Shown here in pieces: positions 12,061 through 20,790 of a stretch of DNA of 64,000 nt. Source of the stretch: a bacterium (GTDB lineage: Bacteria > UBA8248); the NCBI GenBank assembly GCA_965204535.1, contig CBDBEV010000001.1:1376001-1440000 (forward strand), written 5' to 3'. The notes beneath the pieces are model-generated. The model was not told where the DNA came from. It saw only the letters and a list, made by a program, of their open reading frames with translations, and did not search any database. The position numbers and the translations under genes are program-made. Within the stretch, counting starts at the first letter, position 1. Every line of letters starts with the position of its first letter.

Positions 12061-14631
12061 CTAGCGAGCCGCTTCTTCTACCGTTACCCGAGGGCTGCTG
12101 AGAAGTATTTCCGTTCGACGATTTTTGGCGCGGCCCTCTTCGGTGTCGTTTTTCGCCACCGGGCGGTAAAATGAGTAGCCGGTCGCCGACATGCGTTCAG
12201 GCGATATGTTTTTCGATTCCAGGAACTTGACGATGGCGATAGCGCGCGCGAACGATAGTTCCCAATTCGAAGGATAGCGTCTGAGCAGATTGCCTCTGAT
12301 GGGCCGATTATCCGTATGTCCTTCTACCTGTATTATTTTGTCTTTTTGTTTTCCGAGAAATTCCGCAATCTTAGAGAGCGCCTCGCTTCCCTTTTCCCTG
12401 ATCCTGGCGCTTCCCAGATCAAACAAAAGATTGTTCACGAAGGTCACGCGGAGCAAGTCTTCAGTTCTTCGCAGCGTGATGGATTGTTCCTGTAGCTTGC
12501 TGTCCATCTTCTTCAGGTCTGATTCCAGTTGCTTGGCCCGTTCGGCTTCTTCGCGTGCCCTTTTCTCCAGAACTTTAGAGCGTGCGATTGCCAGCGTGTG
12601 TTTTTTGATCGTTTCCGCCAGGCTCAGGTTTGTCTGATCCAGCTTGTTCCTGATGAGGTCGGCCACGGAGGTTTTCTCCGCGATGAGTTGGCTCATCTCT
12701 TGAACCTGCGCCCGGAGGAGTTCCCTGGCTTTTCCGAGACGGTTTGCCTCTTCGGCCCGCTTTCTTGCGAGTTCGGCGTTTCGGGTCTTTGCTTTTTCCG
12801 CCTCCGTGCGCGTCTTGCGTTCAGTATCGAGAGTTTTCCGGGTTTCTTCGAGCGCGAGTTCGAGGTTCTGGGTTTTGGTTCTTCCCTTTTCGATGGTGGC
12901 GTTTTTCTCCGAGATGAGTCGGCTCATCGCCTGAACCTGGGTATTGAGGATTTCCCTGGTTTTCTCGAGGCGCTTCATCTCCGCGGCCCGGTTTTGCGCG
13001 AGTTCGGTTTTTTGCGCGGTTGATTTCTCGGCCTTAGCCGGCGCCTTGCGCTGACTGGCGACGCTGCGTTTTTTCGCCCTTGCCTGCTCGTCCTTGATGA
13101 GTTGCCCCATCTTTCGGGCCTGGGTCTCGAGAATCTTTCTGACTTGTTCGAGGCGCTTTATCTCTGCGGCCCGTTTTTGGGCGAGTTCGGTGGTATCTTT
13201 ATTTGATTTCTCAACCTTCACCCTTATCTTGCGCTCGGTTTCGAGGGCCGCCTGGATTTGCTTGAGCGCGCGCTCGAGACTTTGGGTTTTTGATTTTTCC
13301 TGTTCGATGTCGGCGCTCTTCTTCGCGATGAGTTGACGCATGATTCCAACCTGGGTCTCGAGGCGCTCTCTGGCTTTTTCGAGACGCTTTATCTCCACGG
13401 CCCGTTCGCTGGCGAGTTTGATGTTCTGCTGACTTGCTTTTTCGGCCTTGGCGCGCATCTTGCGCTCGGCATCGAGGGCCGCCTGGATTTGCTTGAGCTC
13501 GAGTTCGAGTTTTTGAGTTTTTGCTTTTTCCTGCTCGATGTCCGCGCTTTTCATCGCGATGAGTTGGCGCATCCTGCGGACTTGCGTCTGGAGAAGCTCC
13601 CTGACTTTTTCGAGACGCTTCATCTCCCGGGCGCGGGTGCTGGCGAGTTGGACGTTTTGCCGATTTGATTTTTCCATCTCGACCCGCATCTTGCGCTCGT
13701 TCTCGAGCGTGGTCTGGATTTGCCTGAGCGTGCGCTCGAGTTTTTGGGCCTTCGCTTTTTCCTGTTCGATGTCGGCGCTTTTCTCCGCGACGAGCTTGCT
13801 CATCTTTTGAGCCTGTGCCTCGAGTCCTTTTATCTCCTCGGCCCGCGCCTTACGCTCGTTTTCGAGAGTTGCCTCGATTTGCTTGAGCGTACGCTCGATA
13901 TTTTGATTCTTCACCGCCCCTTTCTCGATGTCGGCGCTTTTCTCGGCGATGAGTCGGCTCATCTTTTCAGCCTGGGTCACCAGGCGCTTTACCTCTTCGG
14001 CCCGATTCCCGGCGAGTTGTATGTTTTGTTGATTCGCTTGTTCTGCGTCGGCGCGCATCCTGCGCTCGTTATCGAGGGAGCCATGGATGATGTCGAGCGT
14101 GACTTTGAGGCTTCGGATTTGGGCTTTTCGCTGCTTGATGTCGGCGTTTTTCTCGGTGATGAGCCGGCTCATCTCTTTCGCTTGGGTCTCAAGGCGTTCT
14201 ATGTCTCCCGCCCTCTTGGCGGCGAGCTCGAGATTTTGCTGGTTTGATTTTTCCGTCTCGGCGCGCGTCTTGCGCTCGCTTTCGAGGGCGGTCTGGTTTT
14301 CCTGGAGCGCGGACTCAAGGCCTTGGATTTTCGCTTGGCCTTGCTCGATAGCGGCGTTTTTCTCGGTGACGCGCCTGTCCAGCTCTTCCATTTGTGTCTT
14401 GGCGGAGGCGACCTCTTTTGCGAGCCGGGATCCCAGACTCTTCATCTTCTGGTCTATGTCTTTGAAGCCCTGGATGTCGCTCTTGAGCTTGGCGGAATTC
14501 TCTTTTTCTTTTGAGAGTTCAGCTTCTCTTTGCTGCAGCAGCTCTTTTGTCGATTGGGATTGCTGGGCGAAATATCCTGTCCCGCCGAGCAGAACGGCGA
14601 TAATCGCCCCTATGGAGATGCGAAGCCCCAC
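12061..14631 (-). CDS. Membrane-anchored long coiled-coil repeat protein with a C-terminal OmpA/MotB peptidoglycan-binding domain
   Basis: N-terminal hydrophobic helix; about eight EKxAxIE repeats; C-terminal LFDLGSA, VEGHTDN, SNWELSFARA and NRRTEI. Confidence 0.88.
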   Translation of the reverse strand: MGLRISIGAIIAVLLGGTGYFAQQSQSTKELLQQREAELSKEKENSAKLKSDIQGFKDIDQKMKSLGSRLAKEVASAKTQMEELDRRVTEKNAAIEQGQAKIQGLESALQENQTALESERKTRAETEKSNQQNLELAAKRAGDIERLETQAKEMSRLITEKNADIKQRKAQIRSLKVTLDIIHGSLDNERRMRADAEQANQQNIQLAGNRAEEVKRLVTQAEKMSRLIAEKSADIEKGAVKNQNIERTLKQIEATLENERKARAEEIKGLEAQAQKMSKLVAEKSADIEQEKAKAQKLERTLRQIQTTLENERKMRVEMEKSNRQNVQLASTRAREMKRLEKVRELLQTQVRRMRQLIAMKSADIEQEKAKTQKLELELKQIQAALDAERKMRAKAEKASQQNIKLASERAVEIKRLEKARERLETQVGIMRQLIAKKSADIEQEKSKTQSLERALKQIQAALETERKIRVKVEKSNKDTTELAQKRAAEIKRLEQVRKILETQARKMGQLIKDEQARAKKRSVASQRKAPAKAEKSTAQKTELAQNRAAEMKRLEKTREILNTQVQAMSRLISEKNATIEKGRTKTQNLELALEETRKTLDTERKTRTEAEKAKTRNAELARKRAEEANRLGKARELLRAQVQEMSQLIAEKTSVADLIRNKLDQTNLSLAETIKKHTLAIARSKVLEKRAREEAERAKQLESDLKKMDSKLQEQSITLRRTEDLLRVTFVNNLLFDLGSARIREKGSEALSKIAEFLGKQKDKIIQVEGHTDNRPIRGNLLRRYPSNWELSFARAIAIVKFLESKNISPERMSATGYSFYRPVAKNDTEEGRAKNRRTEILLSSPRVTVEEAAR

Positions 14632-15785: not shown

Positions 15786-16328
15786 ATGTTCTATATGAAA
15801 GAACTGCCGAACGAGGAAGATTTCAGGCCACTCGTGCCGGAGTATTCCTCTCTGGATACTTCCTCGGTCATGTTGTTTTATCTTTTCCTGCAGGTCGGCA
15901 GTGATATGCTCACCGCCTTTGAAACGTATCTGGCCAATCACGGCGTATCGCAGGGTAGATTCATCGTTCTGTTGCTGCTGCTGCGTTCGCAAATGAGAAA
16001 CAACGGTTCGGGCTTAAGCCCCTCGGAGTTGGCCGGGCAAGCCGGCGTGACGCGCGCGACGATGACCGGCTTGATGAAGGGGCTTCAGCGCGACGGGCTT
16101 ATCGAGCGTTTCAGCCACGATGGCGACAGGAGGAAAGTCATCGTGCGCCTGACGCCCAAGGGAAAAGAGAGCCTGCACGCTATTTTCCCGGACTATTACT
16201 CCCGCATAGCGGACCTCATGAATGATCTGGAGGACGATGAAAGAGAGAAATTTTCCATGCTCCTCCATAAAGTGAAGAACAAAATGTATTCATCGAAACA
16301 GGCGCCGGCCGCCGGCGCTCGAGGATGA
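15786..16328 (+). CDS. MarR-family transcriptional regulator
   Basis: SPSELA...VTRATMTGL...L..DGLIER...DRR..IVRLTPKG winged helix. Confidence 0.93.
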   Translation: MFYMKELPNEEDFRPLVPEYSSLDTSSVMLFYLFLQVGSDMLTAFETYLANHGVSQGRFIVLLLLLRSQMRNNGSGLSPSELAGQAGVTRATMTGLMKGLQRDGLIERFSHDGDRRKVIVRLTPKGKESLHAIFPDYYSRIADLMNDLEDDEREKFSMLLHKVKNKMYSSKQAPAAGARG

Positions 16329-16361
16329 AGAAAACCTCTGTCGAGGAAGGAGAATAAGGCG

Positions 16362-17606
16362 ATGCCGAAACCCAAAGTGATTATCCAGCTGTATCCCATG
16401 CTGCCGACGGAAAACCGGGAGGAGCGCGAGCAGAAACGTCCCCTGGCCAGGGACAAGGACTTGTACCATCACGTGCTTCACGAATGGACGGACATCGTGA
16501 AGGCCGCCGATGAGATGGGTGTCTGGGGCATCAGCACCATCGAGCACCACCTGCATTCGGAGGGTTATGAGGTTGGGCCGAACCCGGGCGTTCTCAACGC
16601 TTGGTGGGCGAATCATGTCAAGAATGCGCGGGTGGGCGCGCTCGGTTACGTCATGGCGACTCAGGATCCGATTCGCGTGGCCGAGGAGACGGCCATCCTC
16701 GATCACATCACCAAGGGGAAGTTCTTCTGCGGCCTGGCGCGCGGATATCAGTCCAGATGGTCGAACGTCCTGGGGCAGTTCAGCGACACCCGGGCCACCG
16801 TCTCCGACGCCCTCGGCGGGGCCGACGACGTGAAGAACCGGGACATCTTCGAAGAGCGCGTCGAGATGCTCCTGAAATTCTGGCAGGAAGATTCGGTGGA
16901 AGTGAAGGGGAATTACTACGAGATTCCCTACCCGTATGAAGAGGGCATCGATTACCCGGCCTGGAAGAGCGCCCGGGACGCCGGCGCAATCGGCGAGATC
17001 GGCGACGACAATCGGGTGCGAAGGGTGAGCGTCGTGCCCAAACCCTATCAGGAGCCTTATCCGCCCGTGTTCCAGGCCGTGAGCGCGAGCCCCGATTCCA
17101 TCAAATTCGCCGCAAGAAACGGTTTCCGGCCCGTGTATTTCACCAAACTGGAAAAGATGGAAGAATTCTCCCACCTCTACGTGGAAGAAGCAGCCAAGGC
17201 GGGCCACAACTTCGCACATGGCGAGCGGCAGTGCGTCTGCCGTTGGATTCATGTGACGGACACCGAAGAAGAGTACGACGAGAAGCTCAAGAACTACGAT
17301 CAGGATATCTACCAGAACTTCTACGTGCCCTTCTTCCCGCAGTTCCCCGACGACACGGAGAGCATCGACTGGATCCAGAACATCAAGGAAAGCGGCATCT
17401 TCCTGGGTGGTCCGGTGGACAAGCTCAAGCAAGAATGGGAGGAAACGTACGAGAAAGTGCCTTCCGAGTTCATTACTCTCATCTGGCACTACGCGCAGTG
17501 CCCCAAGGAAGAGGTTATTTATGAGCTTGAGACGTTTATGACGAAAGTCTGGCCCGACCTCGAGTGTCCGGTGTCGAATGGCGTCACGGTCGGCGGCGTC
17601 GCCTGA
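16362..17606 (+). CDS. LLM-class (luciferase-like) flavin-dependent oxidoreductase
   Basis: IEHH, DPIRVAEETAILDHITKG, ARGYQ and PKPYQEPYPP. Confidence 0.9.
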   Translation: MPKPKVIIQLYPMLPTENREEREQKRPLARDKDLYHHVLHEWTDIVKAADEMGVWGISTIEHHLHSEGYEVGPNPGVLNAWWANHVKNARVGALGYVMATQDPIRVAEETAILDHITKGKFFCGLARGYQSRWSNVLGQFSDTRATVSDALGGADDVKNRDIFEERVEMLLKFWQEDSVEVKGNYYEIPYPYEEGIDYPAWKSARDAGAIGEIGDDNRVRRVSVVPKPYQEPYPPVFQAVSASPDSIKFAARNGFRPVYFTKLEKMEEFSHLYVEEAAKAGHNFAHGERQCVCRWIHVTDTEEEYDEKLKNYDQDIYQNFYVPFFPQFPDDTESIDWIQNIKESGIFLGGPVDKLKQEWEETYEKVPSEFITLIWHYAQCPKEEVIYELETFMTKVWPDLECPVSNGVTVGGVA

Positions 17607-17621
17607 TTTTTGTTGACGATG

Positions 17622-17650
17622 AAGCCCCCGCATTCACGTGCGGGGGTTTT
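17622..17650 (+). terminator. Rho-independent terminator-like hairpin after the LLM gene
   Basis: cccccgca/tgcggggg stem followed by TTTT. Confidence 0.6.
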
Positions 17651-17675
17651 GCATAACGTTTTTGAGGAGACGAGC

Positions 17676-18389
17676 ATGTATGAAATCATCGATCTGAGCC
17701 AGGAGATCTACACCGGCGCGCCCAGGTTTCCCGGGCACCCGGCGACGGAAATCGAATACGTCGCCCGGCACGAAGACGCAGCCAATGCGCCGATCAAGCC
17801 GAAGGACATCACATACGCCGCCATGATGCTTCACATGTGCGATCACGGCCCGACGCATACCGATTCGGTCAGCCACATCGATGAGCGTGAAACGGCGCCC
17901 AATATCGATCAGGCGCCGCTCGAATGGTTCATCACACGGGCGATTGCGCTCGATTTCACGGGCAAGGTGGGGCCGATGGAAGAAATTTCCCTGCAATTGT
18001 TACAGGACGAGCTTTCGGCGGCGAACCTCGCACCCCCCAAAGACGGCACGTTCCTCTTCACGGGGGGGCATTTCAAGCGCACCTATCCGACGGATGATTA
18101 CCTCACAACGTACCCGGGTCTGGGTTACGACGCCGCGAATTTTCTGTATCGCGAATGCGGCGTGGTGAACATCGGCCAGGATGCGCCGAGCATCGATGCC
18201 GGCGTGAACACCACGGAGATGACGTTCCCCTGCCATGTGCTTTGCCGGGAACTTCAGCGCCACAACACGGAAAATCTCGCGAATGTGGAAGCGGTGGGGG
18301 GGAAGGAATTTCTCTATGTGGGGCTTCCGCTCAAGATTCGCGCGGGCACCGGCTCTCCCATACGGGCCGTCGCCGTCATGAACCTTTAA
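17676..18389 (+). CDS. Cyclase (kynurenine formamidase-like) family metal-dependent hydrolase
   Basis: IIDLSQ, HGPTHTD, ENLAN and PLKIRAGTGSPIRAVA; start set at ATG 17676 after GAGGAG. Confidence 0.9.
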   Translation: MYEIIDLSQEIYTGAPRFPGHPATEIEYVARHEDAANAPIKPKDITYAAMMLHMCDHGPTHTDSVSHIDERETAPNIDQAPLEWFITRAIALDFTGKVGPMEEISLQLLQDELSAANLAPPKDGTFLFTGGHFKRTYPTDDYLTTYPGLGYDAANFLYRECGVVNIGQDAPSIDAGVNTTEMTFPCHVLCRELQRHNTENLANVEAVGGKEFLYVGLPLKIRAGTGSPIRAVAVMNL

Positions 18390-18512: not shown

Positions 18513-18863
18513 ATGCCCAAGACAGTGGATTGGTACTACCATCGCTCCGGCTGAAAGACCTGCGCCAAAACGCAAGCGTTTCTTGCGGAAAATGGAATCG
18601 AGGTATCCGAGCAGGCCAGTTCCAGAAAAGACGTGGTGGATGAGAACAACGTCGATTCGCTTCTGGACGGCGTGACGGACGTCTATTCGACCAGGAGCAG
18701 GAAGGTCATTCACCTGGATATCAAAAAAGCGAACCCTGCGCGCGAAGACGTGCTGGCGCTTTTGATGGGCCGCTCGGGCACGCTCAGGGCGCCGGTCATC
18801 AAACATCGCAGCGCCCTCATCGTCGGCTTCGACGCGGAAACGTATTCACAGGTTTTGACGTAA
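18513..18863 (+). CDS. ArsC-family/thioredoxin-fold selenoprotein (UxxC), 116 aa
   Basis: GAGGAG then ATG 18513 gives MPKTVDWYYHRSG-U(TGA 18552-18554)-KTCAKTQAFL, in frame with the 18633-18863 ORF that contains GTLRAP...IVGF. Confidence 0.88.
18571..18587 (+). promoter_or_regulatory. Candidate bacterial SECIS for the ArsC-like gene
   Basis: CGCAAG-CGTTT-CTTGCG hairpin; the loop begins 22 nt after the UGA and has G at position 2. Confidence 0.65.
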
Positions 18864-18879: not shown

Positions 18880-20334
18880 TCAGAGGGCCAACTGGCCCTC
18901 GGTGGGTTCCGCTCAGCAGAACCACGATTCGGTCAAACGGGGCGGGCGGATTCGGTCGGGCGCGAAGGCGGCCTTTGGCTGCTCTTGATCGGGGCGTTCG
19001 AGAACCTCGGCCGCCAATTCGCGAATCCTCGCAAAAGTCACGGCGGCGTCCTCTTGGCGAGTGGCAGCGTCCTCCACGAGAGTGAGCGCCTCCTGGTGCA
19101 GCTTGTCCATTCGCGCGTCGGGATGCGCCCAGCGGTAGATGAAATTCTCGGCGTCGAGTTCGGTGATGTATCTCTTCATGTGGGGGGAGTCGAGTAAATG
19201 GGAACCCGGCGGCACCAGTAGCCGGATGGCCATCTGAATCGGGTCGACCTCGTCGATCAAGGCGTTTTCTTCAATGAAATCAAGCAAGTCGAAATAATCC
19301 TGCGCGCTTGTCCACGGCGTGAATGCGACCAGAGACGGCCTGATGGAAACGCGCGCCTCCCGGGCGGCTTTCACGACGCGGAAGACGTCCTCCCTGTTGT
19401 GCCCTTTTACCAGATGACCAAGGACGAGGTCGCTCAGAGACTCCACCGCGGTAATGATAAACGCGCATCCGTTATCTCTAAACTCCGGCAGAAGCTCCTC
19501 GTGCTTGATGAGGTGCTCGACCTTGGCCGTGAAGTCGAAGGTGAGCGAGGGAAACCGCTCGTGCATGGCGCGGGCGACCCGGAGCGCATGAGCGGGGCCG
19601 TTCAGGAAATCCGGGTCCGCAAAGGTGATGTGGCGCGCGCCTTGCGCCGCCAGGTCTTCGATGTCTTCCAGAACTTTGTCCTGCGGCACGACGAAGAAAC
19701 GGCCCTCATACACCGGCGGAATGGGGCAATGGAGGCACAAGTGCTTGCAGCCTCGGCTCGCTTCGACGGCGCCCGCAGGATAATGCTGCCCCTCCTTCAC
19801 GAGATGGGCGTATGCCTGAAGCGCGGGCAATCCTTCCCGGTCAGGTTTGAGCAGGGGGATTTTTTCGAGATACGGGCCGGATGTTCGCTCTCTCGTGGCC
19901 GCGCCGGCTACTTCAATGTTCCCCGAGGCTTGGGACAGTTCTTGAACGAGCCTCACGAGCGGAAGCTCGAACTCACCGCCGATCGCCGAATCCCCGCCGT
20001 TCTCAAGCAGATAGCCCTTGTTGAGCAGGCCGTATAGGCCATAGAAACAGATGTGGCACCCCGGGTTCGCCTCGCGTACTTTCGCCGCGACTTCCACGCC
20101 GAGCCTGAGCGCGGTGTGCATCGGTACGCTGATGCCGACGAATTTGGCATTTTCGATTTTTTGTGGGGAGAAGTCCTCCGCCGCAACGTCCATCGCCCGG
20201 GGACGAAAGCCCGCTTTGCGCAAAAAAGCCAGGGGCGAGGCGACGGCCAGGGGCTGGTGACCCAACTCGTAACACGAGACGAGGACGACGGCGCCGGGCG
20301 CTCGCCACTCCGAAGCCTTATCGGTTCGGTTCAC
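18880..20334 (-). CDS. B12-binding radical SAM selenoprotein with a CUAEP tail
   Basis: CKHLCLHC motif and an N-terminal cobalamin-binding-like domain. Reading through TGA 18915-18913 gives ...LTESWFC-U-AEPTEGQLAL* with the stop at 18882-18880. Start is uncertain (GTG 20334 versus ATG 20376). Confidence 0.88.
18883..18900 (-). promoter_or_regulatory. Candidate bacterial SECIS for the radical SAM gene
   Basis: GAGGGCC-AGTT-GGCCCTC hairpin starting 12 nt after the UGA, with G at loop position 2. Confidence 0.75.
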
Positions 20335-20356: not shown

Positions 20357-20388
20357 AAAAAAAGCCCCGGGCGCATGATGCCCGGGGC
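20357..20388 (-). terminator. Rho-independent terminator after the iscA/erpA-like gene
   Basis: gccccgggc/gcccggggc stem followed by seven U on the minus strand. Confidence 0.8.
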
Positions 20389-20406: not shown

Positions 20407-20790
20407 TCACGTAGTGAACGATTTTCCGCAGCCGCACATGCCCATGGCGTTGGGGTTGTTGATCTTGAAGCCCGAGCCCTGGAGGCTGTCGATGAAGTCG
20501 ATTTCCGTGCCCGCGATGACGGGATAACTCTGGGGGTCCACGAACACGTCGAAGCCATCGGCGGAGAACACTTTATCCTCGGGGTTGGCGGATTCCTCGA
20601 AATACAGGCCATAGTTGTAACCCGAGCAACCGCCGGCGGTGACGGCCAGCCTGAGGCCGTGGCCGCTCTTGCCTTCCGCCTCGAGAATCTCGGCGACCTT
20701 CTTGTTGGCGAGCGGCGTAACCGTAATGCCTTCAAGGGCTTGGGGTTTCTTTTGGGACTGATCGAACAGCGTGACCGTTCCATCCGACAT
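20407..20790 (-). CDS. HesB/IscA/ErpA family Fe-S cluster carrier
   Basis: GGCSG, GFKINNPNA and CGCGKSF. Confidence 0.95.
   Translation of the reverse strand: MSDGTVTLFDQSQKKPQALEGITVTPLANKKVAEILEAEGKSGHGLRLAVTAGGCSGYNYGLYFEESANPEDKVFSADGFDVFVDPQSYPVIAGTEIDFIDSLQGSGFKINNPNAMGMCGCGKSFTT

Follow-up and report, generated by a model that had tools for sequence, protein, structure and literature searches.

The nearest studied relative of the enzyme described here is, judged by sequence (36% identity), ArsL, which is a radical SAM enzyme and passes the aminocarboxypropyl (ACP) group of S-adenosylmethionine (SAM) onto arsenic held by the cysteines of its tail. ArsL is described as producing an ACP radical and binding As(III) via these tail cysteines (10.1101/2024.02.01.577332; 10.64898/2026.04.29.721666), with cleavage of the C-gamma-S bond of SAM and formation of an Fe-ACP species (10.64898/2026.04.29.721666). 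An MCCA variant with two vicinal cysteines is described as fully active, and a variant of this two-cysteine kind as the most active one (PMC13598754). Going by these accounts, no canonical radical SAM enzyme other than ArsL is known to cleave SAM at its ACP side. Another family, NF040546, is defined by a CUAEP or CCAEP tail and was described as uncharacterised by Haft and Gwadz, who tied CU motifs to heavy-metal binding (10.1101/2022.07.06.499078).

Our analysis of a 64,000-nucleotide stretch of bacterial DNA (the window) identified a full-length member of the latter family, encoded with the following features.

18880..20334, minus strand: gene for the CUAEP-tail radical SAM protein (NF040546), a predicted selenoprotein of 484 amino acids with TGA read as selenocysteine (U)
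19948..20286, minus strand: Rossmann domain at the N-terminus (residues 17-129), similar to a B12-binding domain and likely cobalamin-free, below the PF02310 cut-off and present in ArsL-type proteins
19726..19749, minus strand: CxxxCxxC motif of the radical SAM [4Fe-4S] cluster (C196, C200, C203), with no change in any of the 63 aligned proteins
18913..18918, minus strand: Cys473 (TGC, 18918-18916) and predicted Sec474 (TGA, 18915-18913)
18883..18900, minus strand: bacterial SECIS hairpin GAGGGCC-AGTT-GGCCCTC, with a 7-bp stem and an AGUU loop from 19 nt past the UGA
18880..18882, minus strand: true stop codon, TGA here and TAA or TAG in relatives

The protein scored 668.5 bits against the NF040546 cut-off of 500, with residues 16-483 matching profile positions 1-467 of 468, which bears out the original prediction of a named CUAEP/CCAEP family without a characterised reaction. 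The general radical SAM domain (PF04055) was found at 51.7 bits, over the cut-off of 29.5, with the TIM-barrel core and the CxxxCxxC motif in place. ArsL (NF040542) was the second-best family with 316.9 bits, under its cut-off of 450, and the third reached 45 bits. At the protein level the window protein shows no difference from its family, and the C-[C/U]-A-E-P tail is present in the form C-U-A-E-P. Compared with two ArsL-type proteins, identity was 36-37% over the core (residues 17-424), and among the 84 residues that are invariant in the family, 55 are identical in both ArsL-type proteins and 29 differ. Shared with ArsL are the two-domain architecture and the vicinal chalcogens at the C-terminus. 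However, ArsL carries an RCCLKC/CCxxC tail, whereas the CUAEP enzyme lacks the RCCLKC tail and has a Cys-Sec pair, located about 50 residues further out than the ArsL cysteines and after an RPPRLTExW linker. The neighbours differ as well, being arsQ, arsM and arsN for ArsL and a ligase and Fe-S carriers for the CUAEP enzyme. The closest sequence match in the PDB had an E-value of 6.5e-6, and there is thus no close solved relative. The suggestion that the vicinal Cys-Sec pair could hold a metal(loid)-type substrate gains support by analogy with the tail cysteines of ArsL, a closer precedent than HgcB and thioredoxin reductase, which had been named as analogies. The long, free-swinging redox arm that was also proposed does not agree with our structure model, in which pLDDT is 92 at residues 461-470 and drops to 68 only at residues 471-480.

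Translation with table 11 ends the protein at the Cys before the TGA. With TGA read as U the C-terminus becomes RPPRLTESWFC-U-AEPTEGQLAL-stop, and this predicted continuation was confirmed in related loci: the tail was reached in 39 of 40, and the codon at this position was TGA in 36 and Cys in 3. The alignment of homologous C-termini, in which CCAEP or C*AEP was expected, gave [A/T]EP after the recoded codon in all 39 loci with the tail, and the motif is thus conserved. Among the best 120 related proteins, 95 stop at WxC, 23 contain WxCCxEP and 2 are otherwise cut. Within the window's phylum the gene exceeded the NF040546 cut-off in 48 of 51 genomes, with one in-frame TGA in 47 of the 48 and the remaining gene cut by a contig end. 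A Planctomycetota draft genome (G052) contains two copies, each with the TGA. The window's genome encodes tRNA-Sec, SelA (572.8 bits) and SelB (389 bits), both over their cut-offs, as well as a SelD-like gene. The Cys of the homologues, the AEP homology beyond the TGA, the SECIS element and the Sec machinery together make it almost certain that the TGA taken for a stop codes for selenocysteine. The second TGA (18882-18880) was rejected as a read-through codon since it swaps with TAA or TAG in relatives. The GTG at 20334 was taken as the start, in agreement with close homologues of 473 amino acids up to the Cys. An upstream ATG at 20376 was discarded for the same reason and because it falls within a terminator-like hairpin between the radical SAM gene and iscA. 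The resulting annotation correction is minor, with 11 residues gained.

20357..20388, minus strand: terminator-like hairpin with a run of Ts, in the gap that separates iscA from the radical SAM gene, by consensus match only
20407..20790, minus strand: IscA/ErpA A-type Fe-S carrier (TIGR00049, 120 bits, over cut-off), upstream neighbour

The predicted GAGGGCC-AGTT-GGCCCTC hairpin was indeed present at 18900-18883. Its stability by itself lies within chance (13 of 200 shuffled versions are no less stable, z -1.67) and was not accepted as proof of a SECIS. The bacterial SECIS model is described with a 3-9 nt loop, a G in the first two loop positions, a 4-16 bp stem and a spacing of 16-37 nt from the UGA (PMC13188914), and the window hairpin agrees with it in loop size, loop G and spacing. 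The test for covariation that had been suggested gave a positive result, with two-sided stem changes in Sec forms and loss of the stem in Cys forms. When a loop length of 4 or 5 was picked per sequence, for Sec and Cys groups alike, 6 or 7 of the 7 stem positions were paired in 51 of 60 distinct Sec-form 36-mers and only 1-4 in the 5 Cys forms; many of these sequences are closely related, and the counts overstate their independence. Stems of the Sec forms vary on both sides, pair 5 being A-U in 24 and G-C in 28, and pair 6 being C-G in 29, G-C in 25 and U-A in 3. Mean folding energy was -11.5 kcal/mol for 72 Sec forms (one truncated) compared to -1.3 kcal/mol for the 5 Cys forms. The loop of 4 nt is a lineage variant, many relatives having 5 nt. 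The hairpin was also considered as a terminator of the convergent ArsC-family gene (see below) and rejected, since there is no T run on either strand and the hairpin tracks the Sec codon; it was absent from the terminator predictions for the region.

Clustering of neighbouring genes revealed an ATP-grasp gene of the L-amino-acid-ligase type that recurs among them. In the window's genome (G000) the ligase lies outside the window, 1.2 Mb from the radical SAM gene, at C2:2592017-2593270, convergent with nfuA at C2:2591413-2591961 (L044). In a sample of 201 Acidobacteriota genomes, 31 encoded the radical SAM protein, 35 the ligase, 30 both and 165 neither, one of the ligase-only genomes being G078, which is unpublished; the two genes were at most 3 kb apart in 16 of the 30 genomes with both. 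Each enzyme occurred in 2 of 121 Nitrospirota genomes, and these were the same two. All 46 genomes (of 51) in the window's phylum that have the ligase also have the radical SAM gene, and in G008, where no trace of the latter was detected, the ligase is missing too. Among 301 Planctomycetota genomes 6 had the radical SAM gene, and a ligase search that covered these six was positive in 4. The ligase was not found in three draft genomes with the radical SAM gene (G088, G469 and G052). This distribution suggests that the radical SAM enzyme and the ligase are, with high probability, obligate partners.

Among solved structures, BL00235 (3VOT) comes closest to the ligase (E 1.6e-71 over nearly the whole length); it is described as making Met-Gly and Met-Met with methionine as the N-terminal substrate (PMC6920838). 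The partner ligase differs from it by an invariant Cys in the motif RxIGGxC, which BL00235 lacks and which is encoded by TGC or TGT, and never as selenocysteine, in every locus found, and by its predicted acceptor, a protein lysine. In most loci nfuA, iscA, yggX or a Rrf2 regulator flank one or the other enzyme. In 45 of 45 genomes of the window's phylum no more than 3 kb separate the ligase from nfuA, and iscA is located upstream of the radical SAM gene also in relatives. In family f4 (L105-L110; G002, G004, G005) two ligase paralogues occur in 5 of 7 genomes, one adjoining nfuA and the other adjoining the radical SAM gene and yggX. Loci of related genera (L022-L025, L039, L112) have a Rrf2/IscR-like regulator ahead of iscA and the radical SAM gene, suggesting regulation by Fe-S status; in the window it is not adjacent. 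Three Blastocatellia-type loci (L027, L029, L040) carry selD together with an EgtB-like gene just upstream of their ligase gene, which could reflect selenium supply or local synteny.

NfuA of the window's genome contains the CxxC motif CAGC and ends in NPYYAPTQK. Among Acidobacteriota, in the best 50 of 118 places (E <=1e-22, tail-bearing type), the tail lysine was found in 22 of 22 ligase-positive but only 1 of 28 module-negative sequences, the latter from 27 genomes. It is placed 2-4 residues past NP[YF][YF], both where the two enzymes occur together (17 of 17 genomes) and where there is the ligase only (5 of 5). For Planctomycetota, 46 of 48 places gave the lysine in 4 of 4 module genomes versus 0 of 42 others. 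The remaining two places are both from G052, whose one complete NfuA ends in ATAR and whose other is cut by a contig end. In the window's own phylum all 30 NfuA tails, read from 47, had the lysine, and G008, without radical SAM gene or ligase, has a tail-less Nfu only. The 13 Acidobacteriota module genomes without a tail-type NfuA all had a strong match to YggX, often beside the ligase. When 32 of 82 YggX matches were read, a lysine at a fixed tail position was present in 13 of 13 such module genomes versus 4 of 19 module-negative ones. In family f4 the YggX lysine occurs in G002 and G004, each with a second ligase beside the radical SAM gene and yggX, and is missing in G005 and G006, each with a single ligase (beside nfuA in G005).

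The tail lysine is in some proteins not the last residue (KG, KGGSSPFA), and this speaks for its side chain as the site concerned, and not for the C-terminal carboxylate. Several module-negative NfuA relatives have arginine at this position. On a tree of the NfuA domain minus its tail (FastTree, 109 rows) the lysine label needs 11 changes. The independent-pairs test was underpowered, with 1 pair on well-supported branches and 6 on all branches (p = 1). There are also exceptions to the pattern. The two Nitrospirota genomes with both enzymes (G053, G355) gave no NifU-domain match and their YggX-like proteins had no tail lysine; in both a DUF169 gene lies between the two enzymes. In the draft genome G059 we found a lysine-tailed NfuA and neither enzyme. 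On balance we lean slightly towards the tail lysine of NfuA or YggX being the acceptor.

Beta-lysylation of EF-P provides a precedent for a radical SAM enzyme (EpmB) and an amide-forming enzyme (EpmA) that act on one lysine. The formation of lipoyl-lysine by LipA with LplA or LipB shares this logic (PMC9585516). Both systems differ from the present one in their enzyme families, and here the predicted target is the C-terminal tail of an Fe-S carrier. The co-occurrence with the ligase and the co-variation of the NfuA and YggX lysines suggest that radical SAM enzyme, ligase and lysine-tailed carrier might form a protein-lysine modification system. Beyond what is observed, namely the recoding signals, family membership, kinship to ArsL, ligase co-occurrence and co-variation of the tail lysine, we propose a mechanism of four steps. 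SelB would read the SECIS, for which the recoding signals are present, and Sec474 would be inserted. The [4Fe-4S] cluster would then, as in ArsL, split SAM into methylthioadenosine and Fe-ACP, and by this analogy we consider cleavage of the C-gamma-S bond by the CUAEP enzyme likely. The Cys-Sec pair would present S or Se, possibly As, which takes the ACP group. Finally, the ligase would activate the carboxylate of the product with ATP and couple it to the lysine in the tail of NfuA or YggX.

The third step is the weakest and the captured atom the least certain part of this scheme. In our estimate the capture of a chalcogen, S or Se, with a homocysteine-type residue as the result, falls just short of probable and is favoured over arsenic, for which we hold only a tentative expectation, since the gene context is one of Fe-S biogenesis and not of arsenic handling. 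By our reasoning an ACP-X product would be methionine-shaped, comparable to the methionine products of BL00235. The same kind of reasoning also provides an argument against the scheme, because ordinary metabolism would make a radical route to mere homocysteine superfluous. Considered as a whole, the attachment of a methionine-like amino acid to the tail lysine of an Fe-S carrier by the two enzymes is a serious possibility, based on sequence patterns and analogy, that we would not yet call probable. Still more tentatively, the modification might be widespread, with an ACP-S/Se/As amino acid isopeptide-linked to the C-terminal lysine of NfuA or YggX, one carrier replacing the other between lineages. 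If true, Fe-S carriers would gain a thiol-, selenol- or arsenic-tipped arm, as lipoyl domains do with lipoate.

A small-molecule pathway, which we hold to be rather unlikely, would use the same enzymes differently. An ACP-heteroatom amino acid, such as hydroxyarsinothricin or a seleno or thio analogue, would be ligated to a free amino acid or an amine, with a dipeptide as product, the lysine tail would be a docking signal, and NfuA, IscA or YggX would merely supply or repair Fe-S clusters. The ligase does belong to the L-amino acid ligase group, whose members are described as joining free amino acids to dipeptides (PMC6920838) rather than as acting on proteins, which also counts against the lysine scheme, and NfuA is described as a cluster donor to the radical SAM enzyme LipA (PMC9585516). 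The two Nitrospirota genomes that have both enzymes and no lysine-tailed partner would also fit. However, in 45 of 45 genomes of the window's phylum nfuA adjoins the ligase, which has no evident cluster, rather than the radical SAM gene, and the tail lysine occurs on two unrelated proteins in genome sets that complement each other. A docking signal based on charge would be kept by the arginine of several module-negative NfuA, and no exporter or resistance gene recurs among the neighbours. A further point in favour is an ArsL-type locus on a Priestia plasmid (L117:1629-2852) with an ATP-grasp gene nearby, which is, however, only 23% identical to the ligase and was rejected as its orthologue. 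This locus, which may make an arsenical dipeptide, encodes the unrelated ATP-grasp, a CMD-family gene and ArsR, and arsM was not seen in the stretch examined.

Returning to the proposed lysine modification, the genes around the radical SAM gene also bear on an improbable alternative, namely arsenic or antimony detoxification or organoarsenical synthesis, in which Sec would improve the capture of As(III). ArsL is the only characterised close relative, and there two vicinal thiols suffice (PMC13598754); CU motifs have moreover been linked to heavy-metal binding (10.1101/2022.07.06.499078). The convergent neighbour in the window is itself a predicted selenoprotein of arsenical name.

18513..18863, plus strand: ArsC-family selenoprotein (NF041106) with a U14xxC motif (U14-K-T-C), TGA at 18552-18554

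This gene scored 119.7 bits (cut-off 85), is overlooked by plain ORF calling, and kept its TGA in 23 of 23 relatives with an alignment over it; a fold search found no clear SECIS fold for it. It is convergent with the radical SAM gene in 24 of 40 loci, none of which lies outside the lineage group of the window, and we found no reported arsenate reductase activity for NF041106. The luciferase-like monooxygenase, the cyclase, MarR and clpB-dnaK are, like it, confined to loci of this lineage group, and all these genes were rejected as parts of the system and appear to be neighbours by descent. Queries with ArsM, ArsQ, ArsN, ArsB, ArsR and ArsC gave no match in 85 loci around radical SAM or ligase genes, whereas true ArsL lies among ars genes, and the radical SAM gene is near-universal in the phylum (48 of 51), even in genomes of about 2 Mb.

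Other genes near the module were noted in passing. A DUF169 query matched 4 of the 85 loci, and a minority of loci (L031:7564-8262, L201, L076, L295, L297), including those of the genomes without a lysine-tailed partner, have a DUF169 (PF02596) gene that adjoins the radical SAM gene. In the window, positions 15786-18389 (plus strand) contain a MarR regulator, a luciferase-like monooxygenase and a cyclase/arylformamidase-like gene, which are conserved in the genus. Positions 12061-14631 (minus strand) encode a protein of 856 amino acids with long repeated coiled-coil segments and, by inspection, an OmpA/MotB-like C-terminal domain.

The enzyme was originally labelled cobalamin-type, with methylation implied. 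B12 radical SAM enzymes usually have a GGxH motif, and the CUAEP family has YGLY at this site. PF02310 (B12-binding) gave 22.5 bits for the window protein, under the cut-off of 32.1, and 22.2 bits for the ArsL-type protein of the Priestia locus. The structure model (pLDDT 93) matched AprD4 first in the fold ranking, followed by TsrM, OxsB and MgmA at 14-18% identity. Class B radical SAM enzymes (TsrM, OxsB, MgmA/QCMT, TokK) resemble it in overall fold, with TM-scores of 0.58-0.70 by query, but differ by this low identity, the B12 score below cut-off and the first rank of AprD4, which is not a B12 enzyme. AprD4 and ArsL homologues are described as having a remotely Rossmann-like domain that does not bind cobalamin (PMC12931638), and the main-text assays of ArsL report turnover with SAM and reductant and do not mention cobalamin (10.1101/2024.02.01.577332). 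From the B12 score, the best match AprD4 and the non-binding ArsL homologues, 'cobalamin-type' would describe the fold and probably not the cofactor, and the CUAEP enzyme likely needs no vitamin B12; the label, and with it the implied methylation, is probably wrong given the ArsL-type kinship. A cobalamin-dependent methyltransferase or reductase, with the Cys-Sec arm delivering a metal(loid) or shuttling electrons like thioredoxin reductase, is therefore very improbable despite the Rossmann and TIM-barrel fold, weak matches to several B12 radical SAM families and genes for B12-type mutases in the genome (translations inspected), and methylation would leave the ligase unexplained.

Taken by itself, the radical SAM gene of the window is by its sequence an ordinary member of a catalogued, uncharacterised family, one that forms a much more widespread sister of ArsL. 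It likely belongs to a three-protein system whose genes are unlinked in the window's lineage. In a search of mostly open literature we found no published description of a CUAEP radical SAM enzyme with a ligase and a lysine-tailed NfuA or YggX, and the system, unlike the family itself, is likely undescribed in print. The link to the ligase and the pattern of lysine tails single out a partner enzyme, a candidate for the substrate and a single residue for mutagenesis. If cleavage on the ACP side is true, the CUAEP enzyme would be the second canonical radical SAM case after ArsL, and a selenoprotein. If the proposed lysine modification is right, it would represent a new post-translational modification in Fe-S cluster trafficking and, for these lineages, a first concrete starting point in the study of YggX.
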